Part shown: piece by piece, positions 2,112-42,388 of the stretch
Position numbering within the stretch: position 1 is the stretch's first letter
Layout: each line of letters begins with the position of its first letter
Assembly (NCBI RefSeq): GCF_044324785.1
Contig: NZ_CP172127.1
From: Escherichia coli
GTDB taxonomy: Bacteria > Pseudomonadota > Gammaproteobacteria > Enterobacterales > Enterobacteriaceae
Length of the DNA stretch: 64,000 nucleotides
Reading direction: 5' to 3' (one strand)
Made by a program: the position numbers and the translations under genes
Notes under the pieces: generated by a model
Databases searched by the model: none
Seen by the model: only the letters and a program-made list of their open reading frames with translations
Told to the model about the DNA's origin: nothing

Positions 2112-2122
2112 GGAAAGGAACA

Positions 2123-3316
2123 ATGACAACATTACTTAACCCGTATTTTGGTGAGTTTGGCGGCATGTACGTGCCACAAATCCTGATGCCTGCTCTGCGC
2201 CAGCTGGAAGAAGCTTTTGTCAGCGCGCAAAAAGATCCTGAATTTCAGGCTCAGTTCAACGACCTGCTGAAAAACTATGCCGGGCGTCCAACCGCACTAA
2301 CCAAATGCCAGAACATTACGGCTGGCACTAACACCACGCTGTATCTCAAGCGCGAAGATTTGCTGCACGGCGGCGCGCATAAAACCAACCAGGTGCTCGG
2401 CCAGGCTTTGCTGGCGAAGCGGATGGGTAAAACGGAAATCATCGCCGAAACCGGAGCCGGTCAGCATGGCGTGGCGTCGGCCCTTGCCAGCGCCCTGCTC
2501 GGCCTGAAATGTCGCATTTATATGGGTGCCAAAGACGTCGAGCGCCAGTCGCCTAACGTTTTTCGTATGCGTTTAATGGGTGCGGAAGTGATCCCGGTGC
2601 ATAGCGGTTCCGCGACGCTGAAAGATGCCTGTAATGAGGCGCTACGCGACTGGTCCGGCAGTTATGAAACCGCGCACTATATGCTGGGCACCGCAGCTGG
2701 CCCGCATCCTTACCCGACCATTGTGCGTGAGTTTCAGCGGATGATTGGCGAAGAAACGAAAGCGCAGATTCTGGAAAGAGAAGGTCGTCTGCCGGATGCC
2801 GTTATCGCCTGTGTTGGCGGCGGTTCGAATGCCATCGGTATGTTTGCAGATTTCATCAACGAAACCGACGTCGGCCTGATTGGTGTGGAGCCTGGTGGTC
2901 ACGGTATCGAAACTGGCGAGCACGGCGCACCGTTAAAACATGGTCGCGTGGGCATCTATTTCGGTATGAAAGCGCCGATGATGCAAACCGAAGACGGGCA
3001 GATTGAAGAATCTTACTCCATCTCCGCCGGACTGGATTTCCCGTCTGTCGGCCCACAACACGCGTATCTTAACAGCACTGGACGCGCTGATTACGTGTCA
3101 ATTACCGATGATGAAGCACTGGAAGCCTTCAAAACGCTGTGCCTGCACGAAGGGATTATCCCGGCGCTGGAATCCTCCCACGCCCTGGCCCATGCGCTGA
3201 AAATGATGCGCGAAAACCCGGAAAAAGAGCAGCTACTGGTGGTTAACCTTTCCGGTCGCGGCGATAAAGACATCTTCACCGTTCACGATATTTTGAAAGC
3301 ACGAGGGGAAATCTGA
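2123..3316 (+). CDS. trpB: Tryptophan synthase beta chain
   Basis: 397-aa ORF ([25 protein letters not shown]…) recognised as TrpB; AGGA RBS upstream. Confidence 0.97.
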
Positions 3317-13771: not shown

Positions 13772-14774
13772 AAAGCGGATCGACTTTCAGGCAAGAAACG
13801 GCGTGTCTGAAACTCCCCTCCAGCACAGGACGTGTTTTGGCACACTCCGGACCGGCAATCGGGCAACGGGTACGGAAAACACAACCGGAAGGCGGGTTGA
13901 TCGGCGACGGTAATTCCCCTTCCAGTAACTGGATGGTTTTGTTCTTCTCCAGATCCGGATCAGGTATGGGGACTGCCGACATCAATGCCCTGGTGTAAGG
14001 ATGTAGCGGATTGTGATAGACCTCATCATAGGTCCCCAGTTCTACCGCATGGCCGAGATACATCACTAACACACGATCGGAAATGTGTTTTACCACGGCC
14101 AGGTCGTGAGCGATAAAAATTAATGACAATCCCATCTCGCGTTGCAGCTGCTGGAGCAGGTTGACCACCTGCGCCTGAATTGACACGTCCAGCGCCGACA
14201 CCGGCTCATCACAGATAATCAGCTTCGGTTCAAGAATAAGAGCACGAGCAATCCCGATACGCTGGCACTGCCCACCGGAAAACTCATGCGGATAGCGGTT
14301 AATCAGGTTAGGCAATAACCCGACTTTCAGCATCATCGCCTTCACGCGCTCGCGAACTTCCTGGCGTGACATTTTCGGATGATAGGTACGCAGTGGTTCA
14401 GCGATGATCTCGCCGATGGTCATACGCGGGTTAAGCGATGCCAATGGATCCTGGAAAATCATCTGAATATCACTGCGAACGGCACGCCATTCATCGGGCT
14501 TCATGCCCAGCAACTCTTTACCTAACCAGGCAACATGACCGTCGGTCGCTTTAACCAGGCCAATGATGGCGCGAGCAAAGGTGGACTTACCGCATCCCGA
14601 CTCCCCTACCACACCTAATGTTTCCCCTTCATACAGGCGAAGAGTTACACCATCTACGGCTTTGAGCGTTTTCGGCGGTTGCCAGAACCACTGTTTGCCA
14701 TCTTTGATTTCAAAATGCACTTTCAGATCGGCGATTTCGAGGAGGACTTTTCTTCCTTCGGTTACAGCATTCAT
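13770..14774 (-). CDS. oppF: Oligopeptide ABC transporter ATP-binding protein OppF
   Basis: 334 aa; Walker A GESGCGKST and ABC signature LSGGQ; recognised as OppF. Confidence 0.95.
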   Translation of the reverse strand: MNAVTEGRKVLLEIADLKVHFEIKDGKQWFWQPPKTLKAVDGVTLRLYEGETLGVVGESGCGKSTFARAIIGLVKATDGHVAWLGKELLGMKPDEWRAVRSDIQMIFQDPLASLNPRMTIGEIIAEPLRTYHPKMSRQEVRERVKAMMLKVGLLPNLINRYPHEFSGGQCQRIGIARALILEPKLIICDEPVSALDVSIQAQVVNLLQQLQREMGLSLIFIAHDLAVVKHISDRVLVMYLGHAVELGTYDEVYHNPLHPYTRALMSAVPIPDPDLEKNKTIQLLEGELPSPINPPSGCVFRTRCPIAGPECAKTRPVLEGSFRHAVSCLKVDPL

Positions 14775-15784
14775 AACAGTTCCTCCACCGGTTTAAAGCA
14801 AGCACGCAGACGGCCAGGCGTAAACTCTTCCAGCGGCGGTGCGCTACTACAAATTTCCATCGCATGCGGACAACGTGGCTGGAACGGGCAACCTTTCGGT
14901 AATCGCAACAGGTTTGGCGGATTACCCGGGATGGTCAACATTGTTTCACCTTCCGCATCGAGACGCGGCACCGCGTTGAGTAAACCGATAGAATAAGGAT
15001 GAACGGGTTGATAAAAGACATCGCGCGCGTTGCCATATTCCATCGTGCGCCCGGCGTACATTACCAGCACTTTGTCGCAGATACCCGCCACCACGCCAAG
15101 ATCGTGGGTGATCATAATGATGGCGGTATTAAATTCCCGCTTCAGTTCATTTAATAGCGTCATGATCTGCGCCTGTACGGTGACGTCCAGCGCAGTAGTG
15201 GGTTCATCCGCAATCAGCAGCTTAGGTCGACATAGCAATGCCATCGCAATCATGACTCGCTGACGCATGCCACCAGAAAATTCGTGCGGGTACATTTTCA
15301 TGCGTTTACGCGCTTCCGGCATTTTTACCGCATCGAGCATCCGCACCGACTCTTCAAACGCCTCAGCTTTGCTCATGTTCTTATGTAGCATCAGCACTTC
15401 CATCAACTGCTCACCGACACGCATATAGGGATTCAACGAAGTCATTGGGTCCTGAAAAATCATTGAGATTTGTTCAGCGCGCAGTTTATTGAGTTCACGC
15501 TCTGGCAAATTGAGGATTTCACGCCCATTGAAGGTTGCCGATCCGCCAATACGTCCGTTGGCAGCCAACAGGCCCATCAACGCAAATGCAGTTTGCGATT
15601 TACCCGAACCAGACTCACCTACAATGCCCAGCGTTTCTCCGGCACGTAGGGAAAAATTTAAATCATTGACCGCCGTGACGTCGCCGTCCGGGGTACTAAA
15701 GGTGACACGCAAATCTTTCACGTTCAGCAGTGCGTCAGCCTGTTGTTGTGCGAGCGGCACAGTTGCAGTTTCAATTACGCTCAT
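14771..15784 (-). CDS. oppD: Oligopeptide ABC transporter ATP-binding protein OppD
   Basis: 337 aa; Walker A GESGSGKSQ and FSGGMRQR; 4-nt overlap with oppF. Confidence 0.95.
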   Translation of the reverse strand: MSVIETATVPLAQQQADALLNVKDLRVTFSTPDGDVTAVNDLNFSLRAGETLGIVGESGSGKSQTAFALMGLLAANGRIGGSATFNGREILNLPERELNKLRAEQISMIFQDPMTSLNPYMRVGEQLMEVLMLHKNMSKAEAFEESVRMLDAVKMPEARKRMKMYPHEFSGGMRQRVMIAMALLCRPKLLIADEPTTALDVTVQAQIMTLLNELKREFNTAIIMITHDLGVVAGICDKVLVMYAGRTMEYGNARDVFYQPVHPYSIGLLNAVPRLDAEGETMLTIPGNPPNLLRLPKGCPFQPRCPHAMEICSSAPPLEEFTPGRLRACFKPVEELL

Positions 15785-15795
15785 GGCTGCACTCC

Positions 15796-16704
15796 TTAAC
15801 GATCTTTCGGGTCGAGGGCATCACGCAAGCCATCGCCGATAAAGTTGAAACAAAACAGTGTCACCACGAGGAATCCCGCTGGGAACAACAATAACCATGG
15901 AGAGACTTCCATCGAGTTCGCGCCATCACTCAGCAATGCACCCCAGCTGCTTAACGGCTCTTGCGTACCCAACCCCAGGAAGCTAAGGAAAGATTCAAAG
16001 AGGATCATGCTGGGCACCAGAAGTGATGCGTAGACCACCACCACACCGAGTACATTCGGCACAATGTGGCGAATAACAATGCCCGACGTCGATACACCGC
16101 CAACTTGTGCCGCCTCAATAAACTCTTTGCGCTTCAGACTCAGGGTTTGCCCACGCACAATACGAGCCATATCCAGCCAGGAAACCATGCCAATCGCCAC
16201 GAAAATCAGCAGGATGTTTTGACCGAAAAAGGTCACCAGCAAAATGACGAAGAACATGAATGGGAAGGAGTTGAGGATTTCCAGCAGACGCATCATTACC
16301 GAATCCACTTTACCGCCCAGATAACCGGAAAGCGAACCATAAAGTGTCCCCACGACCACTGCCACCAGTGCCGCAGCAACACCGACCATGAGTGAGATAC
16401 GCCCGCCAATCGCAACACGCACAAGCAGGTCGCGACCGGATGAGTCAGTACCAAAGTAGTGACCGGACTCCATATCCGGGGCGCTGGACATCATCGCCCA
16501 GTCAGTATCGTCATAGGCAAACTGCGAAAGCATCGGTGCCAGGATTACAAATAACGCGATTAGCACCAGCACTATCAGACTGGCAACCGCCGCACGGTTA
16601 TGCATAAAACGTCGACGTGCGTCCTGCCACAAGCTGCGCCCTTCGACCTCCAGCTTTTCACTGAAATTTTCCAGCGTCTCGCTGTTTTTCTTACTTAACA
16701 TCAT
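15796..16704 (-). CDS. oppC: Oligopeptide ABC transporter permease OppC
   Basis: 302-aa membrane ORF recognised as OppC. Confidence 0.95.
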   Translation of the reverse strand: MMLSKKNSETLENFSEKLEVEGRSLWQDARRRFMHNRAAVASLIVLVLIALFVILAPMLSQFAYDDTDWAMMSSAPDMESGHYFGTDSSGRDLLVRVAIGGRISLMVGVAAALVAVVVGTLYGSLSGYLGGKVDSVMMRLLEILNSFPFMFFVILLVTFFGQNILLIFVAIGMVSWLDMARIVRGQTLSLKRKEFIEAAQVGGVSTSGIVIRHIVPNVLGVVVVYASLLVPSMILFESFLSFLGLGTQEPLSSWGALLSDGANSMEVSPWLLLFPAGFLVVTLFCFNFIGDGLRDALDPKDR

Positions 16705-16718
16705 CGCGAGCTCCAGTA

Positions 16719-17639
16719 TCAGTAACGGATTTTCGGGTCGATAACCGCATATAGCACATCGACAATGGCATTAAACAAAATGGTTAACGCACCAACCAGA
16801 ATGGTCAGACTTAACACTAAGGAATAGTCACGGTTCAATGCGCCATTAACGAACAATTGCCCAATCCCCGGTAAACCATAAATGGTTTCGATGACCATAG
16901 AACCGGTAATAATGCCGACAAATGCAGGGCCCATATAGGAGAGCACGGGTAACAGAGCAGGTTTTAATGCATGGCGTAAAATGATCCGCCGCATAGGTAA
17001 CCCTTTCGCCCGGGCAGTACGAATAAAGTTGGAGTGTAATACTTCAATCATAGAGCCACGGGTAATACGCGCAATACTGGCGATATAGGCGAGTGACAAC
17101 GCCACCATTGGCAGTATCATGAATTTAAGCGCACCACCATTCCAGCCACCTCCCGGCAGCCAATGCAAAATGATCGCAAATATCATGACTAATAATGGCG
17201 CAACCACAAAACTGGGAATAACAACCCCGGTCATTGCCAGCCCCATCACGGTATAGTCCCATTTGGTGTTTTGTTTTAATGCGGCAATAACGCCAGCACT
17301 AACACCCAGTATTACCGCAAGGAAAAATGCTGCGGCTCCCAGTTTGGCAGAAACGGGAAAACTGGATGCAACCAGGTCGTTGACCGAATAATCTTTATAT
17401 TTAAACGATGGACCGAAATCGCCATGCGCCAGTTGTTTCAGGTAGCTGAAATACTGTGTCATGATCGGATCATTAAGATGATATTTCGCTTCGATATTGG
17501 CCATCACTTCTGGCGGTAAAGTACGTTCGCCGGTAAAAGGGCTTCCCGGCGCGAGGCGCATCATGAAGAACGAAATAGTAATAAGAATAAATAGCGTCGG
17601 AATCGCTTCCAGACAGCGACGTAGAATAAATTTTAACAT
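16719..17639 (-). CDS. oppB: Oligopeptide ABC transporter permease OppB
   Basis: 306-aa membrane ORF recognised as OppB. Confidence 0.95.
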   Translation of the reverse strand: MLKFILRRCLEAIPTLFILITISFFMMRLAPGSPFTGERTLPPEVMANIEAKYHLNDPIMTQYFSYLKQLAHGDFGPSFKYKDYSVNDLVASSFPVSAKLGAAAFFLAVILGVSAGVIAALKQNTKWDYTVMGLAMTGVVIPSFVVAPLLVMIFAIILHWLPGGGWNGGALKFMILPMVALSLAYIASIARITRGSMIEVLHSNFIRTARAKGLPMRRIILRHALKPALLPVLSYMGPAFVGIITGSMVIETIYGLPGIGQLFVNGALNRDYSLVLSLTILVGALTILFNAIVDVLYAVIDPKIRY

Positions 17640-29714: not shown

Positions 29715-30557
29715 ATGCAATCACTCCAACGTAAAGTTCTGCGTACTATTTGTCCGGACCAAAAAGGTCTGATCGCACGTATTACCAATATTTGCTACAA
29801 GCACGAGTTAAATATCGTACAGAACAATGAATTTGTTGATCACCGTACCGGGCGCTTTTTTATGCGCACGGAACTGGAAGGAATTTTTAATGATTCCACC
29901 CTGCTGGCGGATCTCGACAGCGCATTGCCAGAAGGCTCCGTACGTGAGCTGAATCCTGCTGGTCGTCGCCGGATAGTGATTCTGGTCACTAAAGAGGCGC
30001 ATTGCCTTGGCGATTTGTTGATGAAAGCCAATTACGGCGGCCTGGATGTCGAAATCGCGGCAGTTATTGGTAACCACGATACTTTACGTTCTCTGGTTGA
30101 GCGTTTTGATATTCCGTTTGAGCTGGTAAGTCATGAAGGATTAAGCCGCAACGAGCACGATCAAAAGATGGCGGATGCCATTGATGCTTATCAGCCTGAC
30201 TACGTGGTGCTGGCGAAGTATATGCGGGTATTAACGCCAGAATTTGTGGCACGCTTCCCGAATAAGATCATCAATATTCACCATTCATTCCTGCCAGCGT
30301 TTATCGGCGCACGTCCTTATCACCAGGCCTATGAACGTGGCGTGAAGATTATTGGCGCAACCGCTCACTATGTGAATGACAATCTGGACGAAGGTCCAAT
30401 CATCATGCAGGACGTTATTCATGTCGATCATACCTACACAGCTGAAGATATGATGCGCGCAGGTCGTGACGTCGAGAAAAACGTCTTAAGTCGCGCACTC
30501 TACAAAGTACTGGCGCAGCGCGTCTTTGTTTACGGTAATCGGACGATTATTCTTTAA
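29715..30557 (+). CDS. purU: Formyltetrahydrofolate deformylase
   Basis: 280-aa ORF with N-terminal ACT domain and formyltransferase core; recognised as PurU. Confidence 0.95.
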   Translation: MQSLQRKVLRTICPDQKGLIARITNICYKHELNIVQNNEFVDHRTGRFFMRTELEGIFNDSTLLADLDSALPEGSVRELNPAGRRRIVILVTKEAHCLGDLLMKANYGGLDVEIAAVIGNHDTLRSLVERFDIPFELVSHEGLSRNEHDQKMADAIDAYQPDYVVLAKYMRVLTPEFVARFPNKIINIHHSFLPAFIGARPYHQAYERGVKIIGATAHYVNDNLDEGPIIMQDVIHVDHTYTAEDMMRAGRDVEKNVLSRALYKVLAQRVFVYGNRTIIL

Positions 30558-30716
30558 TCGCCAGCAAAAATAACTGGTTACCTTTAATCCGTTACGGATG
30601 AAAATTACGCAACCAGTTCATTTTTCTCAACGTAACACTTTACAGCGGCGCGTCATTTGATATGATGCGCCCCGCTTCCCGATGAGGGAGCAGGCCAGTA
30701 AAAAGCATTACCCCGT

Positions 30717-30801
<85 letters not shown>

Positions 30802-30856
30802 TCACTTTCAAAAGTCCGTGAACTCTCAAACGAATCCGCGATTAAATATTCTGCCC

Positions 30857-30943
30857 ATGCGGGGAAGGATGGGAAGCTTCGACCAAGGTGCGACTCGAGC
30901 GCCAGCGAGAAAGCGTTGCCGCAGGCAACGACCCGAAGGGTGA
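30857..30943 (+). CDS. tpr: Protamine-like small basic protein Tpr (29 aa), inside the tyrT 3' repeat unit
   Basis: ATG 30857 to TGA 30941 gives [28 protein letters not shown]; matches the tpr ORF of the tyrT operon as recalled; whether it is translated is uncertain. Confidence 0.45.
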
Positions 30944-30960
30944 AGCGCGCAGCGCTGAGT

Positions 30961-30985
30961 AATCCTTCCCCCACCACCATCACTT
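30961..30985 (+). repeat. Direct repeat of the tRNA-Tyr 3' end (25 bp, period 178 bp)
   Basis: AATCCTTCCCCCACCACCATCACTT occurs at 30783..30807 and again at 30961..30985, exactly 178 bp apart. Confidence 0.8.
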
Positions 30986-31065
30986 CCTGTAAATACTCAA
31001 AACCAGTTACTCCGAGCTAATTCTGCCCAATGGCACCGCGTTTACCGGACCTACAATATCCATCC

Positions 31066-31098
31066 CTGTAGGTCGGATAAGCGAAGCGCATCCGACAA
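31066..31098. repeat. REP-like palindromic unit
   Basis: TGTAGGTCGGATAAGCGAAGCGCATCCGACAA with GTCGGAT/ATCCGAC arms, resembling REP consensus. Confidence 0.45.
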
Positions 31099-31117
31099 CT
31101 CACCCCGTACCGTGCCC

Positions 31118-31142
31118 ATAAAAAACCCCGCCGAAGCGGGGT
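31118..31142 (-). terminator. Rho-independent terminator after narI (end of narGHJI)
   Basis: On the minus strand: CCCCGCTTCGGCGGGG followed by TTTTTTA. Confidence 0.75.
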
Positions 31143-31162
31143 CTATGCAAACTAAAATTCGC

Positions 31163-31840
31163 TTAGTGACGAGCGCGCACCAGCTGATACTTACGTGTCA
31201 GATACTCCACCGGTACGCTCCAGATGTGCACCAGACGTGAGAACGGGAACAGCAAGAATAACGTCATCCCCAGCACCAGGTGCAGACGGAAGATAAACGC
31301 CACGCCATCAAGATGTTGAGAAGCGCCACCGTGGAAGGTCACCACCGACTGCGCCCAGCCAACCAGTTTCATCATCTCGCTACCGTCCATATGCTGGGCG
31401 GAGAACGGAATGGTCAGCAAGCCCAGAGCGCATTGGATAACCAGCAGAGACAGGATCAGGATATCCGCTCCGGTAGTCGTTGCACGCACGCGTGGGCTGA
31501 ACAGACGACGTTTCAGCAACAGCACGCCGCCAATCAGACACAGCACGCCGCTGGCACCACCAGCAAACATCGCCATTTTCTGTTTCACTTCAATCGGCAG
31601 CCAGGCTTCATACATCCAGTGCGGCGTCAGCATACCGAAGAAGTGACCGACAAAAATCCCCAGAATACCGATATGGAACAGGTTCGACGCCAGGTTCATC
31701 CCTTTGCGATCCAGCATCTGGCTGGACGCCGCGCGCCAGGTGTACTGCCCGTAGTCATAACGTAGCCAGCTACCAATCAGGAAGACCGCCCCGGCTATGT
31801 ACGGGTAGATATCAAAGAAGAACATATTCAGGAATTGCAT
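31163..31840 (-). CDS. narI: Respiratory nitrate reductase 1 gamma subunit
   Basis: 225-aa multi-TM haem-b subunit; recognised as NarI. Confidence 0.95.
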
Positions 31841-32550
31841 TAGTGCTGTCCTCCGGTGGTGATATTCAGATATTGCGGCGCGACGGCACCGGCAAAGCGA
31901 CGTTGATGGGCAGTGATGGCTGAATCACCGCAGCCTTTGTCAGCAAAGAATTTAACCTGCTCTTCTTCCCAGACGGCATCCAGCGCCTGCGGCGTATCGT
32001 CGCGCGCTTCGTCGGCAATTTTTTCCGCCACTTTGTCGCTGTCGATTGCGGTATTCGCCAGTTTCAGCAGCAGATCAAACAGCACGGCATAACGGCTTTC
32101 ACGCTGTTGCAGACGCGCGCAGAGCAATGCCAGAATCGGCGCGATATCTTTCAAACCTTCCACGGCTTCGCTTTGCGGCAGCTGCGCCAGATACTCCAGG
32201 TACAGCGGCAGATGGTCCGGCAATTCGCGGCTGTTTAACTGCAAACCGCGCTGCTCGTACTGTGCCAGCAGGTCCACCATCGCCTGACCGCGATCGCGGG
32301 ATTCCCCGTGAACGTGTTCAAACAGCAACAGCGACGTTGCGCGACCACGATCGAACAGTTCGCTGTACTGGGCCTGGGCATCGAGCGGATCCAGCGCCGT
32401 TAAATCGCGCAGGAAAATGCCCAGCGCATGGGCATCTTCTTTCGACAAATTTTCCGACGCGGCAATCGCCTCGAACATCTCCTGTTGATGCTGCCATAAG
32501 GCAGCATCCGGATATTCAAGGAGACGCGATACAATCACGAGTTCGATCAT
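31840..32550 (-). CDS. narJ: Nitrate reductase 1 assembly chaperone
   Basis: 236 aa; position between narH and narI; recognised as NarJ. Confidence 0.95.
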
Positions 32551-34085
32551 GGATGCGGCTCCGTTTTGCTGGTTACGTCGATGGCATCGATACGACGGCT
32601 GTTGAACAGATTGAATTTGGTATCTGAACCGTGGCAGCCATCACCAAAGGTAAAGCCGCAGCCATTTTTCTCCGGGAATGCTTCCCGCGCCAGTTCACGA
32701 TGACTGCTTGGTACCACAAAGCGATCTTCGTAGTTGGCAATCGCCAGATAACGATACATTTCCTGTGCCTGGGCTTCGGTCAGACCGACCTCTTCCAGCG
32801 CACGGGTATCCACTTTCCCGTCAACGGTTTCAGCACGTTTATAATGACGCATCGCCAGCATACGTTTCAGCGCGCGCAGTACCGGTTTGGTATCACCGGC
32901 GGTCAGCAGATTCGCCAGATACTGTACCGGAATACGCAGGCTTTCGACGTCTGGCAGAATGCCGTTGCTACCTAGCTCACCCGCGTCTGCTGCAGACTGA
33001 ATCGGAGACAGAGGCGGCACGTACCAGACCATCGGCAGTGTGCGATATTCTGGATGCAGCGGCAGCGCCAGTTTCCATTCCATTGCCATTTTATAAACCG
33101 GCGACTGCTGTGCGGCTTCAATAACACTCAGCGGAATACCGTCTTTAATCGCCTGCTCGATGACTTTCGGATCGTTCGGATCGAGGAACACCTCCAGCTG
33201 ACGCTGGTAGAGATCTTTCTCGTTCTCGGTGCTGGCTGCACGTTCAATGGCGTCCGCATCGTACAACAGCACGCCGAGATAACGGATACGACCGACACAG
33301 GTTTCAGAGCACACCGTCGGCTGACCCGCTTCAATACGCGGATAGCAGAAGATGCACTTCTCAGACTTACCGCTCTTCCAGTTGAAGTAGATTTTTTTGT
33401 ACGGGCATCCGGTGATGCACATACGCCAGCCACGGCATTTATCCTGGTCGATCAGGACGATGCCATCTTCTTCACGCTTGTAAATCGCACCGCTCGGGCA
33501 GGTCGCCACACATGCCGGGTTCAGGCAGTGTTCGCACAGGCGCGGCAAATACATCATGAAGGTGTTTTCGAACTGGCTATACATCGCCTTCTGGATGTTG
33601 TCGAAGTTCTTGTCTTTCGCCAGCTTGTCAAACTCACCGCCCAGGTCATCTTCCCAGTTAGGCCCTTTTTCGATTTTCGCCATCCGTTCCCCGGTAATCA
33701 GCGAACGCGGACGGGCAATCGGCTGCGATTTGCTGCCTTCCGGCGCGGTATGCAGGTTCTGATAATCAAAATCGAACGGCTCGTAATAATCGTCGATCCC
33801 CGGCAGATGCGGGTTAGCAAAGATTTTACCCAGCAGCATGGCTCGGTTACCCATGCGCGGTTGCAGTTTGCCATTGATTTTACGGATCCAGCCGCCTTTG
33901 TATTTTTCCTGGTTTTCCCAGTCAGTCGGGAAGCCCTGGCCCGGCTTGGTTTCCACGTTGTTGAACCACGCGTATTCCACGCCTTCACGGCTGGTCCAGA
34001 CGTTTTTACAGGTAACTGAACAGGTGTGGCAGCCGATGCACTTATCGAGATTCAGCACCATGCCGACTTGTGAACGAATTTTCAT
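32547..34085 (-). CDS. narH: Respiratory nitrate reductase 1 beta subunit (Fe-S)
   Basis: 512 aa with multiple Cys clusters (CIGCHTCSVTC, CEHCLNPACVATCPSG…); recognised as NarH. Confidence 0.95.
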   Translation of the reverse strand: MKIRSQVGMVLNLDKCIGCHTCSVTCKNVWTSREGVEYAWFNNVETKPGQGFPTDWENQEKYKGGWIRKINGKLQPRMGNRAMLLGKIFANPHLPGIDDYYEPFDFDYQNLHTAPEGSKSQPIARPRSLITGERMAKIEKGPNWEDDLGGEFDKLAKDKNFDNIQKAMYSQFENTFMMYLPRLCEHCLNPACVATCPSGAIYKREEDGIVLIDQDKCRGWRMCITGCPYKKIYFNWKSGKSEKCIFCYPRIEAGQPTVCSETCVGRIRYLGVLLYDADAIERAASTENEKDLYQRQLEVFLDPNDPKVIEQAIKDGIPLSVIEAAQQSPVYKMAMEWKLALPLHPEYRTLPMVWYVPPLSPIQSAADAGELGSNGILPDVESLRIPVQYLANLLTAGDTKPVLRALKRMLAMRHYKRAETVDGKVDTRALEEVGLTEAQAQEMYRYLAIANYEDRFVVPSSHRELAREAFPEKNGCGFTFGDGCHGSDTKFNLFNSRRIDAIDVTSKTEPHP

Positions 34086-37000
34086 TTTACGCTCTCCTGT
34101 ACCTGGTCATTGCCTTCGCCATCTAACCAGTCAATGTTCTTCATCTTACGCACTACAACAAACTCATCGCGGTTAGAACCTACGGTGCCGTAGTAGTTAA
34201 AGCCGTATGCCAGATGGGCATAGCCGCCGATCATATGCGTCGGTTTCGGCGTGATACGGGTGACCGAGTTATGGATACCACCACGCTGTTGGGTAATTTC
34301 CGAACCAGGCAGGTTAACGATACGTTCCTGCGCGTGGTACATCATGGTCATCCCTGCCGGAACACGCTGGCTGACAACCGCACGGGCAGTCAGAGCACCG
34401 TTGCTGTTGAATACTTCAATCCAGTCGTTATCGGCGATACCCAGATCTTTGGCATCGGCTTCACTCAACCAGACCACCGGACCACCGCGACCTAAAGTCA
34501 GCATCAGCAGGTTGTCGCTGTAGGTGGAGTGGATACCCCACTTCTGGTGCGGCGTCAGGAAGTTGAGCGCTTTTTCCGGGTTGCCGTTGGATTTCTGGCC
34601 TATCACTTCTTTCACCGAACGGGTGTCGATCGGCGGACGATAAACCAGCAGGCTTTCACCGAAATCACGCATCCACTGGTGATCCTGATACAGTTGCTGA
34701 CGACCAGAGAGCGTACGCCATGGGATCAGCTCGTGAACGTTGGTGTAACCGGCGTTGTAAGAAACGTGTTCATCTTCAAGGCCAGACCAGGTCGGGCTGG
34801 AGATGATTTTGCGCGGCTGTGCCTGAATATCGCGGAAGCGAATCTTCTCGTCTTCTTTATTCAGCGCCAGATGCGTATGGTCACGACCGGTAAACTCGCT
34901 CAGGGCAGCCCAGGCTTTCACGGCTACCTGACCGTTGGTTTCCGGTGCCAGCGTCAGGATCATCTCTGCCGCATCAATTGCGGTGTTCAGCATCGGCTGG
35001 CCTTTTGCCGGGCCTTCCGCTTTGGTGTAGTTGAGCTTACGCAGCAGATCCATCTCGCTCTGGGTGTTCCAGGCAATCCCTTTACCGCCATTACCGATTT
35101 TCTCCATCAGCGGGCCGATAGAGGTAAAGCGTTCGTAAGTCGCCGGATAATCGCGCTCTACGACCATAATGTGCGGTGCAGTTTTGCCAGGGATCAGGTC
35201 GCATTCGCCTTTTTTCCAGTCTTTCACATCCAGCGGCTGCGCCAGTTCAGCGGCAGAGTCGTGCTGGATAGGCAGCGTGACGATGTCGGTTTCTTTACCC
35301 AGATGGCCGACGCACACTTCGGAGAATTTCTTCGCGATGGCTTTGTAGATTTCCCAGTCGCTTTTCGCTTCCCAGGCCGGATCGACCGCCGCAGACAGCG
35401 GGTGAATAAACGGATGCATATCCGAAGTATTCATGTCGTCTTTTTCGTACCAGGTCGCCGTCGGCAAAATGATGTCGGAATAGAGACAGGTGCTCGACAG
35501 ACGGAAGTCCAGCGTAACCACCAGATCCAGCTTGCCTTCCAGACCATTGTCCTGCCAGTCCACTTCTTCCGGCTTCACGCCGCCCTGCTGCCCCAGATCT
35601 TTACCCTGGATACCGTGCTCCGTCCCCAGCAGGTACTTGAGCATAAACTCATGACCTTTACCGGAAGAACCGAGCAGGTTAGAACGCCAGATAAACAGGT
35701 TGCGCGGGTGGTTTTTACCGTTTTCTGGTTGTTCTGCCGCAAAACGGATGGAACCCTCTTTCAGGGATTTCACCGTATAGTCCACCGGATTCATCCCGGC
35801 TTTTTCCGCTTCGCCAGCGATAGTCAGCGGATTAGTGCCTAACTGCGGTGCAGACGGCAGCCAGCCCATGCGTTCGGCACGGACGTTAAAGTCGATCAGG
35901 TGTCCGGTATAACGGGATTTATCCGCCATCGGTGACAGCAACTCTTCCGCCGTGACGGTTTCATAACGCCACTGGCTGGAGTGGTTATAGAAATAAGAAG
36001 TGCTGTTCATGTGACGCGCCGGACGCTGCCAGTCAAGGGCAAACGCCAGCGGCTGCCAGCCGGTTTGCGGACGCAGTTTTTCCTGACCTACATAGTGCGC
36101 CCAGCCGCCCCCGCTCTGACCGACACAGCCGCAGAAAATCAGCATGTTGATCAGACCACGATAGTTCATATCGAGGTGATACCAGTGGTTCAGCCCCGCA
36201 CCGACGATAATCATCGAACGACCGTGCGTTTTATCAGCGTTATCGGCAAATTCACGGGCGATGCGAATAATCTGGCTGCGAGAAACGCCGGTAATCTGCT
36301 CGGCCCAGGCCGGGGTATAAGCTTTCACATCGTCATAGCTGGTTGCACAGTTAACGTCGTTCAGGCCACGTTCCAGACCGTAGTTTGCCAGCGTCAGATC
36401 ATAAACGGTGGTCACCAGGGCGGTGCTGCCATCAGCCAGTTGCAGGCGTTTCACCGGCAGTTTGTGCAGCAGCACGTTTTCCAGTTCCACTTTGTTGAAG
36501 TGTTCCGTGCCATCGCCACCAAAGTACGGGAAGCCCACCTCAGCGATCTCATCCTGGCTACCCAGCAGGCTTAGTTGCAGCTCGGTTTCTTCGCCAGTTT
36601 TGCCGTCGCGCTGCTCAAGATTCCATTTGCCCTTCTCGCCCCAGCGGAAGCCAATAGAACCGTTCGGCGCAACCATTTCGCCGTTGGTATTAAAGGCGAC
36701 AGTTTTCCATTCCGGATTGTTTTCCTGGCCCAGCGCATCCACCAGATCAGCAGCGCGCAGCATACGACCCGCAGCGTAGTAACCGTCGCGCTCTTCCAGC
36801 ATCACCAGCATCGGCATGTCGGTGTAGCGGCGCACATAGTCGGTGAAATACTGGCTTGGGTTGTCGAGGTGGAATTCACGCAGCATTACGTGGCCCATCG
36901 CCAGCGCCATTGCCGCATCGGTGCCCTGTTTCGGTGCCAGCCACAGATCGCACAGTTTGGCGATTTCAGCGTAGTCTGGCGTGACGGCAACAGTTTTGGT

Positions 37001-37825
37001 GCCTTTGTAACGCACTTCAGTAAAGAAGTGAGCATCCGGGGTACGCGTCTGCGGCACGTTTGAACCCCAGGCGATGATGTAGCTGGAGTTGTACCAGTCA
37101 GCAGATTCCGGTACGTCAGTCTGCTCGCCCCAGGTTTGCGGAGATGCAGGAGGCAGGTCGCAGTACCAGTCGTAGAAGCTTAAGCAAGTACCGCCAAGCA
37201 GCGAGAGATAGCGCGCGCCGGAAGCGTAAGAAACCATCGACATTGCCGGAATTGGCGAGAAGCCAGCGACGCGGTCCGGGCCGTAGTTTTTGATGGTGTA
37301 AACGTTAGATGCGGCGATCAGTTCGTTCACTTCCTGCCAGGAAGAACGAACAAAACCACCGCGTCCACGCGCCTGCTTAAAGCTTTTTGCTTTATCGGCG
37401 TCTTCAATGATAGAAGCCCATGCCTCAACCGGATCGCTATGCAGCGCCTTCGCTTCACGCCACATTTTCATCAGGCGTTTGCGCATCATCGGGTATTTCA
37501 GACGGTTGGCGCTGTAAAGATACCAAGAGTAGCTGGCACCACGCGGGCAGCCGCGAGGTTCATGGTTTGGCAGGTCCGGGCGAGTACGCGGATAGTCAGT
37601 CTGCTGGGTTTCCCAGGTCACCAGACCGTTTTTAACGTAGATTTTCCAGCTGCAGGAGCCGGTGCAGTTTACCCCGTGGGTAGAGCGGACGATTTTGTCA
37701 TGCTGCCAACGCTGGCGATATCCATCCTCCCAGTCACGGTTGGTATTGAGAAGCTGGCCATGCCCATCGGCAAAGGTTTCACCCTTCTGTTTGAAGTAGC
37801 GAAACCGGTCCAGGAATTTACTCAT
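34082..37825 (-). CDS. narG: Respiratory nitrate reductase 1 alpha subunit (molybdopterin)
   Basis: 1247-aa ORF MSKFLDRFRYFKQKGETFADGHGQLLNTNRDWEDGYRQRWQHDKIVRSTHGVNCTGSCSW…; recognised as NarG. Confidence 0.97.
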   Translation of the reverse strand: MSKFLDRFRYFKQKGETFADGHGQLLNTNRDWEDGYRQRWQHDKIVRSTHGVNCTGSCSWKIYVKNGLVTWETQQTDYPRTRPDLPNHEPRGCPRGASYSWYLYSANRLKYPMMRKRLMKMWREAKALHSDPVEAWASIIEDADKAKSFKQARGRGGFVRSSWQEVNELIAASNVYTIKNYGPDRVAGFSPIPAMSMVSYASGARYLSLLGGTCLSFYDWYCDLPPASPQTWGEQTDVPESADWYNSSYIIAWGSNVPQTRTPDAHFFTEVRYKGTKTVAVTPDYAEIAKLCDLWLAPKQGTDAAMALAMGHVMLREFHLDNPSQYFTDYVRRYTDMPMLVMLEERDGYYAAGRMLRAADLVDALGQENNPEWKTVAFNTNGEMVAPNGSIGFRWGEKGKWNLEQRDGKTGEETELQLSLLGSQDEIAEVGFPYFGGDGTEHFNKVELENVLLHKLPVKRLQLADGSTALVTTVYDLTLANYGLERGLNDVNCATSYDDVKAYTPAWAEQITGVSRSQIIRIAREFADNADKTHGRSMIIVGAGLNHWYHLDMNYRGLINMLIFCGCVGQSGGGWAHYVGQEKLRPQTGWQPLAFALDWQRPARHMNSTSYFYNHSSQWRYETVTAEELLSPMADKSRYTGHLIDFNVRAERMGWLPSAPQLGTNPLTIAGEAEKAGMNPVDYTVKSLKEGSIRFAAEQPENGKNHPRNLFIWRSNLLGSSGKGHEFMLKYLLGTEHGIQGKDLGQQGGVKPEEVDWQDNGLEGKLDLVVTLDFRLSSTCLYSDIILPTATWYEKDDMNTSDMHPFIHPLSAAVDPAWEAKSDWEIYKAIAKKFSEVCVGHLGKETDIVTLPIQHDSAAELAQPLDVKDWKKGECDLIPGKTAPHIMVVERDYPATYERFTSIGPLMEKIGNGGKGIAWNTQSEMDLLRKLNYTKAEGPAKGQPMLNTAIDAAEMILTLAPETNGQVAVKAWAALSEFTGRDHTHLALNKEDEKIRFRDIQAQPRKIISSPTWSGLEDEHVSYNAGYTNVHELIPWRTLSGRQQLYQDHQWMRDFGESLLVYRPPIDTRSVKEVIGQKSNGNPEKALNFLTPHQKWGIHSTYSDNLLMLTLGRGGPVVWLSEADAKDLGIADNDWIEVFNSNGALTARAVVSQRVPAGMTMMYHAQERIVNLPGSEITQQRGGIHNSVTRITPKPTHMIGGYAHLAYGFNYYGTVGSNRDEFVVVRKMKNIDWLDGEGNDQVQESVK

Positions 37826-37916
37826 CGGTTTTCTCCTGTGGGAGCCTGTCGGCCCTCTGATAAATCGACATTGCTAATGTTTAAGGGCAAGGTAACGCTC
37901 TGAAACAGCGTGGGAA

Positions 37917-37930
37917 TTGATAACGATCAA
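37917..37930. promoter_or_regulatory. FNR box of the narG promoter
   Basis: TTGATaacgATCAA, perfect TTGAT-N4-ATCAA, about 90 bp upstream of the narG start; a NarL-type heptamer TACCCCT lies at 37968..37974. Confidence 0.65.
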
Positions 37931-38168
37931 GAGTGATGGGGATGAAAAATAAAGTAAATTCCTAAGATACCCCTTTAGGATAATTAACAGCCACAACATA
38001 ACAGACTGTAAATTAAGACGTTTTATACCTGTAGTTATTTAAACTATTAAGATTTTTATGCAGATGGGTATTAAGGAGTATTCCCCATGGGTAACATATT
38101 AATGGCTCTTAATGAAATCCGGCGAAATAAGCCACTCACACATGAATATGTTGTAACTAAACGACAGA

Positions 38169-38196
38169 TAAAAAAAGCGCGACATCATGCCGCGCA
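38169..38196 (-). terminator. Rho-independent terminator after narK
   Basis: On the minus strand: GCGCGGCATGATGTCGCGC followed by TTTTTTT. Confidence 0.7.
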
Positions 38197-38218
38197 AAGG
38201 ATAATCAAATATTAAGAT

Positions 38219-39610
38219 TTATTTTTTAGAATGCCGACCATATACCGCCCAGGTAATCACTACGCAGGCGATATAGAAAATCAAAAATACTTTCATTGCG
38301 CCGACTGGCGAACCCGTTAATGCCAGCGAGCTACCGAACGCTTTCGGGATAAAGAAGCCACCAATCGCGCCAATCGCAGAGATGAAACCCAGCGCCGCCG
38401 CCGTGTCGGTTGCCGCTTCACGCATCGCACGTTCGTCAGACCCCCCTTCTGCTTTCACGCGATCCATTGTCAGTTTACGGAAGATCACGGAAATCATCTG
38501 GAAAGTGGAACCACTACCCAGCCCAGCTGTCAGGAACAGCGCCAGGAAGACTGCGAAGAACGCCATGAAGCTTCCGCCCTGTCCGTCAGTCGGTAAGGTC
38601 AGGAACAGCAGGCCGCTGAAAATCGCCATCAGGATAAAGTTCACCAGTGTGACACGAGTTCCGCCCAGACGGTCAGATAATGCACCACCTGCAGAACGCG
38701 CCAACGCACCAATAAACGGCCCGAAGAAAGCGTATTGCAGAATCTGAACATCCGGGAACTGCGTTTTTGACAGCATCGCAAAGCCCGCGGAGAAGCCGAT
38801 GAAGGAGCCGAAGGTTGCCAGATACAGCAGGCTCATAATCCACAGATGACCCCGTTTGAGTACCGGCAACTGCTCCTTGATGGAGGCTTTCGAGGTAGCA
38901 AGATCGTTCATGCCAAACCACGCCGCAATGGTGAAGATGGCAAGGAACGGCACCCATACCCAGGACGCATTCGCCAGATACAGCTCAGTCCCATCCGGCT
39001 GTTTGACACCCTGGCTACCAAATACTGCGAAAATCGACAGTGATACCACCAGCGGAGCAACCAACTGCATGACGCTGACGCCCATGTTGCCCAGACCACC
39101 ATTCAGACCCAGCGCGCCACCCTGCTTCTGTTTCGGAAAGAAGAAGCTGATGTTTGCCATACTGGATGCGAAGTTCGCGCCAGCAAAGCCGCACAGCAGA
39201 GAGATGATGATGAAGACGCTATAAGGCGTGGAGGTATCCTGCACGGCAAAACCCAGCCAGACACAAGGAATAATCAGAATACCGGTGCTGAACGCCGTCC
39301 AGCGACGACCACCGAAGATAGGAACCATAAAGGAGTATGGAACACGTAATAACGCGCCAGAAACCGAAGGCAGCGCAGTCAACATAAATAGCTGATCGGT
39401 CGTAAAATTAAAACCGACTTTCGGTAAGTTCACCGCAACAGCGCTGAACAACATCCATACGCAAAACGCCAGCAGCAGACAGGGAACGGAAATCCACAGG
39501 TTGCGGCTGGCAATACGTTGACCGCGTTGTTGCCAGAACGCAGGATCTTCCGGTCGCCAATCTGTAATGACAGCTCCAGTAGCCCTTTCGGGGGCGGATG
39601 AGTGACTCAT
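38219..39610 (-). CDS. narK: Nitrate/nitrite transporter NarK (MFS)
   Basis: Start placed at the second Met (MSHSSAPERATGAVITDW…), 463 aa; recognised as NarK. Confidence 0.95.
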   Translation of the reverse strand: MSHSSAPERATGAVITDWRPEDPAFWQQRGQRIASRNLWISVPCLLLAFCVWMLFSAVAVNLPKVGFNFTTDQLFMLTALPSVSGALLRVPYSFMVPIFGGRRWTAFSTGILIIPCVWLGFAVQDTSTPYSVFIIISLLCGFAGANFASSMANISFFFPKQKQGGALGLNGGLGNMGVSVMQLVAPLVVSLSIFAVFGSQGVKQPDGTELYLANASWVWVPFLAIFTIAAWFGMNDLATSKASIKEQLPVLKRGHLWIMSLLYLATFGSFIGFSAGFAMLSKTQFPDVQILQYAFFGPFIGALARSAGGALSDRLGGTRVTLVNFILMAIFSGLLFLTLPTDGQGGSFMAFFAVFLALFLTAGLGSGSTFQMISVIFRKLTMDRVKAEGGSDERAMREAATDTAAALGFISAIGAIGGFFIPKAFGSSLALTGSPVGAMKVFLIFYIACVVITWAVYGRHSKK

Positions 39611-39948: not shown

Positions 39949-41745
39949 ATGCTTAAACGTTGTCTCTCTCCGCTCACCCTGGTTAATCAGGTTGCGCTTA
40001 TTGTGTTGCTTTCTACTGCTATTGGACTGGCAGGGATGGCGGTTTCTGGCTGGCTGGTGCAAGGCGTTCAGGGCAGCGCCCATGCAATAAACAAAGCGGG
40101 ATCGCTGCGCATGCAAAGTTACCGTCTTTTGGCGGCAGTGCCATTAAGCGAGAAAGACAAGCCCTTAATTAAAGAGATGGAACAAACAGCATTTAGCGCC
40201 GAGTTAACTCGAGCAGCAGAACGAGACGGACAACTGGCGCAATTACAGGGTTTACAAGATTACTGGCGTAATGAACTGATCCCTGCGCTAATGCGTGCAC
40301 AAAACCGCGAAACGGTGTCAGCGGATGTCAGCCAGTTTGTTGCCGGGCTTGATCAACTGGTATCTGGTTTTGACCGCACCACGGAAATGCGCATTGAGAC
40401 AGTGGTGCTGGTCCATCGGGTAATGGCGGTATTTATGGCACTTTTACTGGTGTTCACTATTATCTGGTTGCGGGCGCGACTGCTACAACCGTGGCGGCAA
40501 TTGCTGGCAATGGCGAGTGCCGTCAGTCATCGCGATTTTACCCAACGCGCAAACATCAGCGGGCGCAACGAAATGGCGATGCTTGGAACTGCGTTGAACG
40601 ATATGTCTGCAGAACTGGCCGAAAGTTATGCCGTACTTGAGCAGCGGGTTCAGGAGAAAACCGCCGGGCTGGAGCATAAAAATCAGATCCTCTCTTTTTT
40701 ATGGCAGGCCAACCGCCGATTGCATTCCCGCGCCCCGCTGTGTGAACGCCTGTCCCCTGTACTCAACGGCTTACAGAATTTGACCCTGCTACGTGATATC
40801 GAACTGCGGGTGTATGACACTGATGATGAAGAGAATCATCAGGAGTTTACCTGCCAGCCAGATATGACTTGTGATGATAAAGGCTGCCAGCTCTGCCCGC
40901 GCGGCGTATTACCCGTTGGCGATCGCGGCACAACCCTGAAGTGGCGGCTGGCTGACTCTCATACGCAGTACGGCATTTTGCTGGCGACCCTACCGCAGGG
41001 GCGTCATCTTAGCCATGATCAACAACAACTGGTGGATACCCTGGTTGAACAACTCACCGCCACGCTGGCGCTGGATCGCCATCAGGAACGTCAGCAACAG
41101 TTGATTGTGATGGAAGAGCGTGCCACCATTGCGCGCGAACTGCATGATTCTATTGCCCAATCTCTCTCTTGCATGAAGATGCAGGTGAGTTGTTTACAGA
41201 TGCAGGGCGATGCGCTGCCAGAAAGCAGCCGCGAACTGTTAAGTCAGATCCGTAACGAACTGAATGCATCCTGGGCGCAGTTGCGTGAATTGCTCACCAC
41301 ATTCCGCTTGCAGCTCACCGAGCCTGGATTACGTCCGGCGCTGGAGGCGAGTTGCGAAGAGTACAGCGCCAAATTTGGCTTCCCGGTGAAGCTGGATTAT
41401 CAATTGCCGCCTCGTCTGGTGCCTTCGCATCAGGCAATCCACTTGTTGCAAATTGCCCGTGAGGCATTAAGTAACGCCCTCAAACATTCGCAAGCGAGTG
41501 AGGTCGTGGTGACGGTGGCGCAAAACGATAATCAGGTCAAACTGACCGTCCAGGATAACGGCTGCGGCGTGCCAGAAAATGCCATCCGCAGCAATCACTA
41601 CGGCATGATAATAATGCGCGACCGTGCGCAAAGTTTACGAGGCGATTGCCGCGTCCGCCGTCGTGAATCAGGTGGCACCGAAGTGGTGATCACCTTTATT
41701 CCCGAAAAAACTTTCACAGACGTCCAAGGAGATACCCATGAGTAA
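39949..41745 (+). CDS. narX: Nitrate/nitrite sensor histidine kinase NarX
   Basis: 598 aa; two TM segments flanking a periplasmic P-box, HAMP, and HisKA_3/HATPase ([11 protein letters not shown]…); recognised as NarX. Confidence 0.95.
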
Positions 41746-42388
41746 TCAGGAACCGGCTACTATCCTGCTGATCGACGATCACCCGATGTTGCGAACTGGC
41801 GTAAAACAGCTTATCAGTATGGCACCAGATATCAGCGTGGTTGGCGAAGCGAGTAATGGCGAACAGGGTATTGAACTGGCGGAATCTCTTGATCCCGATC
41901 TGATCCTGTTAGATCTCAATATGCCCGGCATGAATGGTCTGGAAACGCTGGATAAACTCCGCGAAAAGTCCCTCTCAGGGCGCATTGTGGTATTCAGCGT
42001 CTCTAACCATGAAGAAGATGTGGTCACCGCACTGAAACGCGGCGCGGATGGCTATCTGTTAAAAGATATGGAACCGGAAGATCTGCTGAAAGCATTGCAT
42101 CAGGCAGCTGCTGGCGAAATGGTATTAAGCGAAGCATTAACGCCTGTTCTGGCCGCCAGCTTGCGCGCTAACCGTGCCACTACTGAGCGCGATGTTAACC
42201 AGTTAACCCCACGCGAGCGCGATATTCTCAAGCTGATTGCCCAGGGTTTGCCGAACAAGATGATTGCCCGCCGCCTGGACATCACCGAAAGCACAGTAAA
42301 AGTGCACGTCAAGCACATGCTGAAGAAAATGAAGCTCAAGTCTCGCGTGGAAGCAGCGGTATGGGTGCATCAGGAGCGCATTTTCTGA
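41738..42388 (+). CDS. narL: Nitrate/nitrite response regulator NarL
   Basis: 216 aa; receiver domain plus LuxR-type HTH; 8-nt overlap with narX; recognised as NarL. Confidence 0.97.

Follow-up and report, generated by a model that had tools for sequence, protein, structure and literature searches.

Sharing of nucleotides between a stop and a start codon is the commonest, already catalogued mode of gene packing in bacterial operons. In Escherichia coli, -4 is the most frequent distance between genes, followed by -1 and -8, and 24% of unidirectional pairs lie between -8 and +6 (PMC10666635), while across 1,695 species the peaks at -4 and -1 are far ahead of all other distances. The pairs trpE/trpD and trpB/trpA, both with a TGATG junction (-1) and an embedded Shine-Dalgarno (SD) sequence, are given as classical coupled pairs in PMC5318159, which cites Oppenheim & Yanofsky 1980 and Aksoy et al. 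1984, the latter for the experimental demonstration of coupling at trpB/trpA. Huber et al. 2019 (PMC6728339) found strict and usually SD-dependent coupling in four of five native E. coli -4 pairs, whereas bioBF is initiated de novo in spite of its -4 overlap. The rate of re-initiation peaks at d = -4 (PMC4538824), and coupling collapses at a spacer of about 20 nt.

The narGHJI operon of E. coli K-12 (b1224-b1227; Huber et al. 2023, Suppl. Table S2) has the same genes, order and distances (-4, -4, -1) as the operon described here. Its K-12 paralogue narZYWV has the same four-gene architecture and three overlaps, but with distances of -4, -1, and -4, and NarW shares about 56% protein identity with NarJ. 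The pairs hyfHI, astDB and ydbH/ynbE as well as menDH, studied by Huber et al. 2019, resemble our -4 junctions in combining ATGA with an SD that lies within the gene and modulates re-initiation, but they are different genes, and the tested set included no pair of ours. We searched the literature for direct coupling experiments on the E. coli narGHJI junctions and found none; coupling is experimental for trp, whereas for nar we infer it.

Results

Overlapping junctions and the narGHJI operon. From trpD to dhaR, the stretch of 64,000 nt that we analyzed (the window) is collinear with the E. coli chromosome, with an identity of 98 to 99%. Nine of its 36 co-directional adjacent gene pairs overlap (Table 1), and the genes at these junctions are all intact with ATG starts. 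The preliminary description had listed the same nine overlaps and proposed an inspection of the junction coordinates; the inspection returned the nine distances exactly, the list proved complete, and the open reading frame (ORF) listing, the direct reading of the junctions and the RefSeq annotation transferred from E. coli KE55 agree on all coordinates. Eight junctions belong to the codon-sharing class, in which 4 or 1 nt are common to stop and start on the same strand, and narX/narL belongs to the related -8 class. The junctions outside narGHJI are spread over five other operons of the window. The names sirB2/prmC and prmC/prfA used previously follow the order on the plus strand; the order of transcription is prfA, prmC, sirB2. 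The distances in K-12 are identical for the eight pairs that were looked up, i.e., all except trpB/trpA (Huber et al. 2023).

Table 1. Overlapping gene junctions in the window and genes of the narGHJI region
Feature	Position	Strand	Junction, distance (nt)	Anti-SD pairing of downstream gene (kcal/mol)	Remarks
narG/narH	34082-34085	-	ATGA, -4	-7.4	GGAGAG SD within narG, 8-13 nt before narH ATG
narH/narJ	32547-32550	-	ATGA, -4	-5.8	moderate SD ACGGAG (in narH)
narJ/narI	31840	-	TAATG, -1	-9.5	strong SD GGAGGA (in narJ)
trpB/trpA	3316	+	TGATG, -1	-8.0	
oppD/oppF	14771-14774	-	ATGA, -4	-9.3	
narX/narL	41738-41745	+	ATGAGTAA, -8	-8.5	SD AAGGAG
prfA/prmC	50404	-	TAATG, -1	-4.9	weak SD
prmC/sirB2 (ychQ)	49571-49574	-	ATGA, -4	-1.7	no recognizable SD
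lolB/ispE	53621	+	TAATG, -1	-3.1	weak SD
narG	34082-37825	-			alpha subunit of nitrate reductase A, 1247 aa; intact ORF, first cistron
narH	32547-34085	-			beta subunit, 512 aa; residues 1-512 match PDB 1q16_B (full length)
narJ	31840-32550	-			Mo-cofactor assembly chaperone, 236 aa; residues 1-184 match PDB 8jzd_A
narI	31163-31840	-			gamma subunit, 225 aa; residues 1-225 match PDB 1q16_C, E = 1.7e-150
narK	38219-39610	-			flanks narG
narXL	39949-42388	+			flanks narG

The narGHJI operon, which encodes respiratory nitrate reductase A, occupies positions 31163-37825 on the minus strand of an E. coli-type chromosome. The genes for the alpha subunit, beta subunit, delta chaperone and gamma subunit follow one another in this order and in the same direction, with intact frames and the annotation transferred from KE55. 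NarH and NarI have chains in PDB entry 1q16, NarJ matched only separate NarJ entries, and NarG was checked by DNA identity (98.5% to annotated E. coli narG) and annotation only. DNA identity to E. coli nar operons is about 98%, and at this divergence of about 2% the form of the junctions is unchanged. The neighboring narK and narXL set the operon apart from narZYWV, whose neighbor is narU. An Rfam scan of positions 30500-38300 gave no match within narGHJI, the only matches being tRNA-Tyr and RtT downstream of narI.

Between the overlapping genes there is no room for a terminator and a promoter, and the overlaps do back the operon assignments made previously, although promoters internal to the upstream ORFs may be compatible with them. 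In the proteome table of PMC6544118, operon identifiers are shared by narX and narL, by narG, narH and narJ, by the listed opp genes, by the listed trp genes and by lolB and ispE, and hemA, prfA and kdsA have one identifier in common. The genes oppD, prmC and sirB2 are missing from this table, and the operon membership of their pairs was taken from flanking genes.

Spacing compared with expectation. Eight of the 11 pairs spaced between -10 and +10 fall on -4 or -1 (binomial p of about 7e-6, with 16 geometrically possible distances as the background). Of 50 control stop codons, 4 had an overlapping ATG by chance, and the ORF listing contains no ORF of at least 100 aa starting at any of these four. 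The share of pairs between -8 and +6 was 31% in the window (11/36) versus 24% genome-wide in E. coli K-12 (707/2987; p = 0.33). The overlap pattern in the window is non-random but typical; it is ordinary and already known.

Shine-Dalgarno sites and local structure. At six of the nine junctions (those preceding narH, narJ, narI, trpA, oppF, and narL) the SD of the downstream gene lies inside the upstream ORF, being moderate for narJ and strong for the other five, whereas the SDs of prmC and ispE are weak and sirB2 has no usable one. SD strength was expressed as the predicted pairing to the 3' end of 16S rRNA (anti-SD; Table 1), and when random coding 20-mers were taken from the window, just 1.7% paired as strongly as the narH site. 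As a group, the nine SDs far exceeded the coding background (Mann-Whitney p = 1e-4) but did not differ from the ribosome-binding sites of other genes (p = 0.46). Occlusion of the starts was checked by local RNA folding from -80 to +40 around each start. The mean unpaired probability for the nine overlaps was 0.46, compared with 0.48 in other genes and 0.41 in the coding background, with no significant difference, so that structure blocking independent initiation is neither supported nor refuted by this comparison.

Junctions in other nar operons. For conservation we used a tblastn sample of plasmids together with a published table of 1,695 species. In 11 other nar operons or lineages, most junctions lie within about 26 nt, and a GGAG-type motif precedes most downstream starts. 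The Pantoea operon has the distances of narZYWV (-4, -1, -4), Ralstonia has -4, +17, and +7, and there is no overlap in Pseudomonas (+11, +5, +2) or Edwardsiella (+26, +3, +10), indicating that the overlap itself is dispensable. The median distance in the 1,695 species is -1 for NarG>H, NarH>J, NarJ>I, LolB>IspE, and NarQ/X>NarL-family pairs, -3.2 for TrpB>A and -0.1 for PrfA>HemK; for the three nar pairs the first quartile is -4 throughout, and the third is +12 (G>H), +2 (H>J) and +11 (J>I). The nar junctions thus stay tight across taxa, while their class alternates between -4, -1 and small spacers and the GGAG motif is usually kept.

Discussion

Coupling by termination and re-initiation is plausible at the nar junctions. 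A ribosome ending at the upstream stop codon would already cover the downstream start and could re-initiate there, aided by the embedded SD, and its passage would also unfold the local mRNA and permit fresh initiation. Translation of the downstream gene would then scale with, and depend on, that of the upstream gene, with a gain that is specific to each junction and arises from SD strength and mRNA structure. With such a gain, an overlap would bring co-ordination and a compact operon but not an automatic 1:1 output, and equal output would be expected only for subunits of one complex (NarG/NarH, TrpB/TrpA, OppD/OppF). For the codon-sharing junctions of narGHJI, we consider termination-reinitiation with junction-specific gain very probably the best overall explanation. 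The co-translation proposed in the preliminary description remains plausible in this form, given trpBA and the other E. coli -4 pairs, whereas the word "stoichiometric" does not stand as a general statement. Given the strong SDs, initiation de novo could nevertheless be the dominant route, as it is at bioBF.

Overlaps might also be a neutral by-product of codon turnover and compaction, each cistron being initiated from its own SD and coupling playing a minor part. The class of junction is indeed labile among narGHJI, narZYWV and the operons of Pantoea, Pseudomonas, Edwardsiella and Ralstonia, a GGAG-type SD is kept before most starts with or without overlap, and bioBF is a case of de novo initiation at a -4 junction. 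Genome-wide, moreover, overlapping ORF pairs vary in their translation-efficiency ratios about as much as non-overlapping pairs (PMC5318159). This explanation is nonetheless unlikely in view of the dominance of the -4 and -1 peaks across species, the tight quartiles of the three nar pairs, the strict coupling of four of the five tested E. coli -4 pairs and the 4.5-fold enrichment of complex subunits among short-distance pairs. In addition, the translation of prmC, ispE and sirB2, which have no usable SD, is hard to explain without re-initiation.

Under a stricter reading of coupling, with which the preliminary description had called the overlaps consistent, every overlap would enforce approximately 1:1 co-translation of both products. 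We consider this improbable. Tryptophan synthase is an alpha2beta2 enzyme, and trpB/trpA is therefore counted as a complex pair; along with narG/narH and oppD/oppF, it encodes partners of a 1:1 complex, and for these pairs stoichiometric co-translation fits. The enrichment of complex subunits among short-distance pairs and the amounts of TrpA and TrpB, which are within 1.5-fold of each other (label-free proteomics, PMC6544118), point the same way. However, among the eight pairs that were looked up, Huber et al. 2023 class only narG/narH and oppD/oppF as heteromeric-complex pairs and the other six as not. Complex pairs make up 3/9 in the window, matching 30.4% genome-wide, and matched synthesis of obligate complex subunits holds in three pairs and not across the nine. 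NarJ is an accessory chaperone absent from the final enzyme (PMC10609526).

Protein abundances also argue against 1:1 output. They come from the label-free mass spectrometry proteome of PMC6544118, in which several values derive from one peptide and nar expression is poor. NarL exceeded NarX, a membrane protein, about 100-fold in raw intensity, and PhoP exceeded PhoQ, likewise a membrane protein and encoded by a pair that also has a 1-nt overlap, by 12.6-fold. LolB was about 6- to 8-fold more abundant than IspE, PrfA (RF1) was detected while PrmC was not, and NarG and NarH, from genes poorly expressed in that data set, gave values of 269 and 39.5. Of six gene names looked for in the eLife 2017 supplement, only prfA had an entry. 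The slope measured for re-initiation is small (at most 0.022 reporter units; PMC4538824), and ratios would therefore still be set by basal ribosome-binding-site strength.

Conversely, junction class and embedded SD strength might together serve as a gain control that can evolve and that makes ratios unequal by design, a proposal to which we give little credence. The nine junctions would fit it: SDs are strong ahead of complex partners and of the response regulator, and weak ahead of the low-abundance enzymes. With nine junctions, and with effects of the SD on re-initiation already published, gain control would at most refine known ideas. Examples to which it could apply are the chaperone NarJ versus NarG and NarL versus NarX. 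If it were true, the permuted classes of narGHJI and narZYWV and the weak or absent SDs of prmC, ispE and sirB2 would represent adaptive tuning rather than drift.

That the overlaps are annotation artefacts, with the true downstream starts at later in-frame start codons, is exceedingly improbable. In its favor, the ORF listing gives the longest ORF by construction, and Pantoea narI is annotated at a doubtful start, a CTG directly before an ATG, but we rejected mis-annotation on the evidence that all nine starts are ATG, six of them with a well-placed SD, that the KE55 RefSeq annotation gives identical starts, that NarH, NarI and NarJ align with PDB chains from residue 1, and that NarH begins with Met-Lys in 11 of 11 lineages sampled, followed by Ile-Arg in nine.

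The overlaps confirm where genes start and support the operon structure in the window; they have little importance beyond annotation quality and show operon packing in textbook form. An overlap of stop and start codons points to co-transcription and to a probable dependence in translation, but it is not evidence of 1:1 protein output, and two-component systems and enzyme-substrate pairs have the same junctions with widely different abundances.

Overlapping gene junctions in the window

Window genes were annotated by carrying over the RefSeq annotation of E. coli strain KE55. The gene order of the 64-kb window matches the E. coli chromosome gene for gene from trpD to dhaR, and all genes wholly inside it are intact ORFs with the KE55 start and stop kept at 95.5 to 100% nucleotide identity. 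Megablast of 31000-38000 against 5,426 complete E. coli genomes found narGHJI in 5,424, with 95 to 99% identity; the top identities across the nar region are only 98.1 to 98.4%. Since the nearest of the 5,426 genomes to the whole window is E. coli N3 (99.2%) and all others reach at most 98.9%, the source lineage is of the Escherichia coli type, slightly apart from most sequenced strains and somewhat outside the commonly sequenced lineages.

Co-directional pairs make up 36 of the 59 adjacent gene pairs, and stop/start overlaps occur only at nine junctions. The overlap lengths given for these in the preliminary description were all borne out by ORFs, junction sequence, and annotation, and because the other 27 co-directional pairs do not overlap, it missed none. 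The nine distances are the same in KE55, and the ends of 31163-37825 (minus strand) coincide with the stop of narI and the start of narG. The tight junctions without overlap were absent from the earlier list; the trpC/trpB and oppC/oppD spacings belong to the E. coli distance peak at +9 to +12 (PMC10666635).

Gene junctions named in order of transcription, from the ORF listing, direct junction reading, and mapped annotation. Negative distances (nt) are overlaps; SD (Shine-Dalgarno) strength is the predicted pairing of the 20 nt upstream of the start with the 16S rRNA 3' end (anti-SD), in kcal/mol.
Junction	Position	Strand	Sequence	Distance	SD
narG/narH	34082-34085	-	ATGA	-4	-7.4
narH/narJ	32547-32550	-	ATGA	-4	-5.8
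narJ/narI	31840	-	TAATG	-1	-9.5
trpB/trpA	3316	+	TGATG	-1	-8.0
oppD/oppF	14771-14774	-	ATGA	-4	-9.3
narX/narL	41738-41745	+	ATGAGTAA	-8	-8.5
prfA/prmC	50404	-	TAATG	-1	-4.9
prmC/sirB2	49571-49574	-	ATGA	-4	-1.7
lolB/ispE	53621	+	TAATG	-1	-3.1
trpD/trpC	749-750		TAAATG	0
sirB2/sirB1	49178-49182			+3
trpC/trpB	2111-2123			+11
oppC/oppD	15784-15796			+11
oppB/oppC	16704-16719			+14

The purU-narI spacer (30558-31162) contains a single tRNA-Tyr gene (30717-30801) and a single RtT repeat unit (30848-30979); compared with the two tRNA-Tyr genes and four RtT units found there in KE55, the tyrTV-rtT tandem array is contracted in the window. narL (plus strand, stop TGA 42386-42388) and ychO (minus strand, stop 42389-42391) converge with a 0-nt gap, as they do in KE55, and therefore any terminators must sit within opposing coding sequence. 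The chaA-kdsA interval has a single Ldr-family type I toxin gene (47224-47331), to which both KE55 copies map. Antisense ORFs of putative coding status lie on the plus strand opposite narG (34529-35842, 437 aa) and narH (33054-34019, 321 aa).

Start codons and chance

All nine overlapped genes start with ATG, and a well-placed SD motif lies within the upstream ORF at six of them (narH, narJ, narI, trpA, oppF, and narL), the coding-sequence background for anti-SD pairing having a median of -2.5. The SD is weak or missing at prmC, ispE, and sirB2. Over their full length, NarI (residues 1-225) matches PDB 1q16 chain C and NarH (residues 1-512) matches chain B, and the alignment of NarJ to PDB 8jzd starts at residue 1. 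NarH begins with Met-Lys in all 11 lineages sampled, followed by Ile-Arg in 9. The ATG starts, embedded SDs, PDB alignments, and conserved NarH N terminus lead us to reject the reading of the overlaps as start-annotation artefacts.

A distance of -4 or -1 was found in 8 of the 11 window pairs spaced -10 to +10 (binomial p ~7e-6; null, the 16 geometrically possible distances). Among 50 control stop codons, four (oppA, rssB, ychJ, and ychN) are overlapped by a chance ATG, and none of these ATGs starts an ORF of at least 100 aa in the ORF listing. Distances of -8 to +6 account for 11/36 window pairs (31%); across the E. coli K-12 genome, the share is 24% (707/2987; PMC10666635; p = 0.33). The overlap pattern exceeds chance, yet it is not peculiar to the window, which is typical.

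nar junctions in other lineages

Other nar operons were sampled by tblastn of NarJ against plasmid and megaplasmid records and inspection of the annotated loci. The distances agree with a published survey of 1,695 species (Huber et al. 2023, PMC10666635, Table S4).

Distances (nt) at sampled nar junctions.
Operon	G/H	H/J	J/I
Klebsiella pneumoniae	-4	-4	-1
E. coli K-12 narZYWV	-4	-1	-4
E. fergusonii narZYWV-like plasmid copy		-1	-4
Pantoea piersonii	-4	-1	-4 (as annotated)
Edwardsiella tarda	+26	+3	+10
Pseudomonas aeruginosa	+11	+5	+2
Moraxella osloensis	+298	+1	-4
Burkholderia multivorans	-4	-4	+25
Caballeronia sp.	-4	+26	+54
Ralstonia solanacearum	-4	+17	+7
Thioclava sp.		-1	-1
Limosilactobacillus fermentum		-8

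Distances (nt) in the 1,695-species survey (PMC10666635).
Pair	Median	q1	q3	n
NarG>NarH	-1	-4	+12	366
NarH>NarJ	-1	-4	+2	353
NarJ>NarI	-1	-4	+11	351
TrpB>TrpA	-3.2	-4	+7.2	1163
PrfA>HemK	-0.1	-4	+15	979
LolB>IspE	-1	-4	+13.5	328
NarQ/X>NarL-family	-1	-4	+21	223

The plasmid narI of Pantoea piersonii (locus L005, 3187-3192) has an annotated CTG start with ATG directly after it (CTGATG), so its 4-nt overlap is probably a start miscall and the real junction the usual 1-nt TGATG. A GGAG-type SD lies 7 to 10 nt 5' of most sampled downstream nar starts, overlapping or not. Conserved at nar junctions are tightness and a usually kept SD; the exact overlap class turns over.

Coupling and stoichiometry

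Junction geometry and embedded SDs are directly seen in the window. A ribosome terminating at a nar junction would re-initiate on the overlapping ATG, assisted by the SD, and may also open mRNA structure for fresh initiation. We infer this from published experiments with other pairs; our literature search found no direct coupling test on the E. coli nar junctions, and folding of initiation regions did not distinguish overlapping starts from other genes. Coupling was strict in four of five native E. coli -4 pairs and mostly SD dependent, the exception being bioBF, with de novo initiation (Huber et al. 2019, PMC6728339). Spacers of ~20 nt nearly abolish coupling (PMC10666635). The re-initiation rate is maximal at -4, but its slope is small, so that expression ratios still depend on the basal strength of the ribosome-binding site (PMC4538824). 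A classical coupled pair is trpB/trpA (Aksoy et al. 1984, as cited in PMC5318159).

The support drawn from the overlaps for operon assignments is sound: operon ids are shared by narX/narL, narG/H/J, the listed opp and trp genes, and lolB/ispE, and hemA, prfA, and kdsA fall under one id (oppD, prmC, and sirB2 are absent from that table; PMC6544118).

The proposal of stoichiometric co-translation is partly right: it fits only the complex pairs (narG/H, oppD/F, and trpB/A) and is not supported as a general rule. We take trpB/A to be a complex pair from the established alpha2beta2 enzyme, outside the published classification. There, narG/H and oppD/F are complex pairs and narH/J, narJ/I, narX/L, prfA/prmC, prmC/ychQ, and lolB/ispE are not; 3/9 in the window matches 30.4% genome-wide (Huber et al., PMC10666635). 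NarJ is an accessory chaperone outside the final enzyme (PMC10609526). In label-free proteomics (PMC6544118 Table S3), which includes some membrane proteins and some one-peptide values, TrpA (1128) and TrpB (739) are close, but amounts are unequal for NarL (733) and NarX (~100-fold lower intensity, single peptide), LolB (642) and IspE (~6- to 8-fold lower, one peptide), PrfA (102) and PrmC (undetected), and the poorly expressed NarG (269) and NarH (39.5). PhoP (1047) and PhoQ (83), whose genes lie outside the window and overlap by 1 nt, are unequal too. Genome-wide, translation-efficiency ratios of overlapping ORF pairs are essentially as variable as those of non-overlapping pairs (K-S p = 0.06; PMC5318159).

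Overlaps have been known since 1980-84 (as cited in PMC5318159) and quantified across thousands of genomes, and the window operon shares the already tabulated junctions of E. coli K-12 narGHJI (Huber et al. 2023). The nar and other window junctions are ordinary in sequence, position, frequency, and conservation: the overlaps are confirmed as an already known feature whose stoichiometric interpretation is partly supported. Strong SDs precede the complex partners and the response regulator, and weak ones precede SirB2 and the low-abundance enzymes PrmC and IspE; with nine junctions, this suggestive pattern is consistent with junction-specific gain, not 1:1 output.
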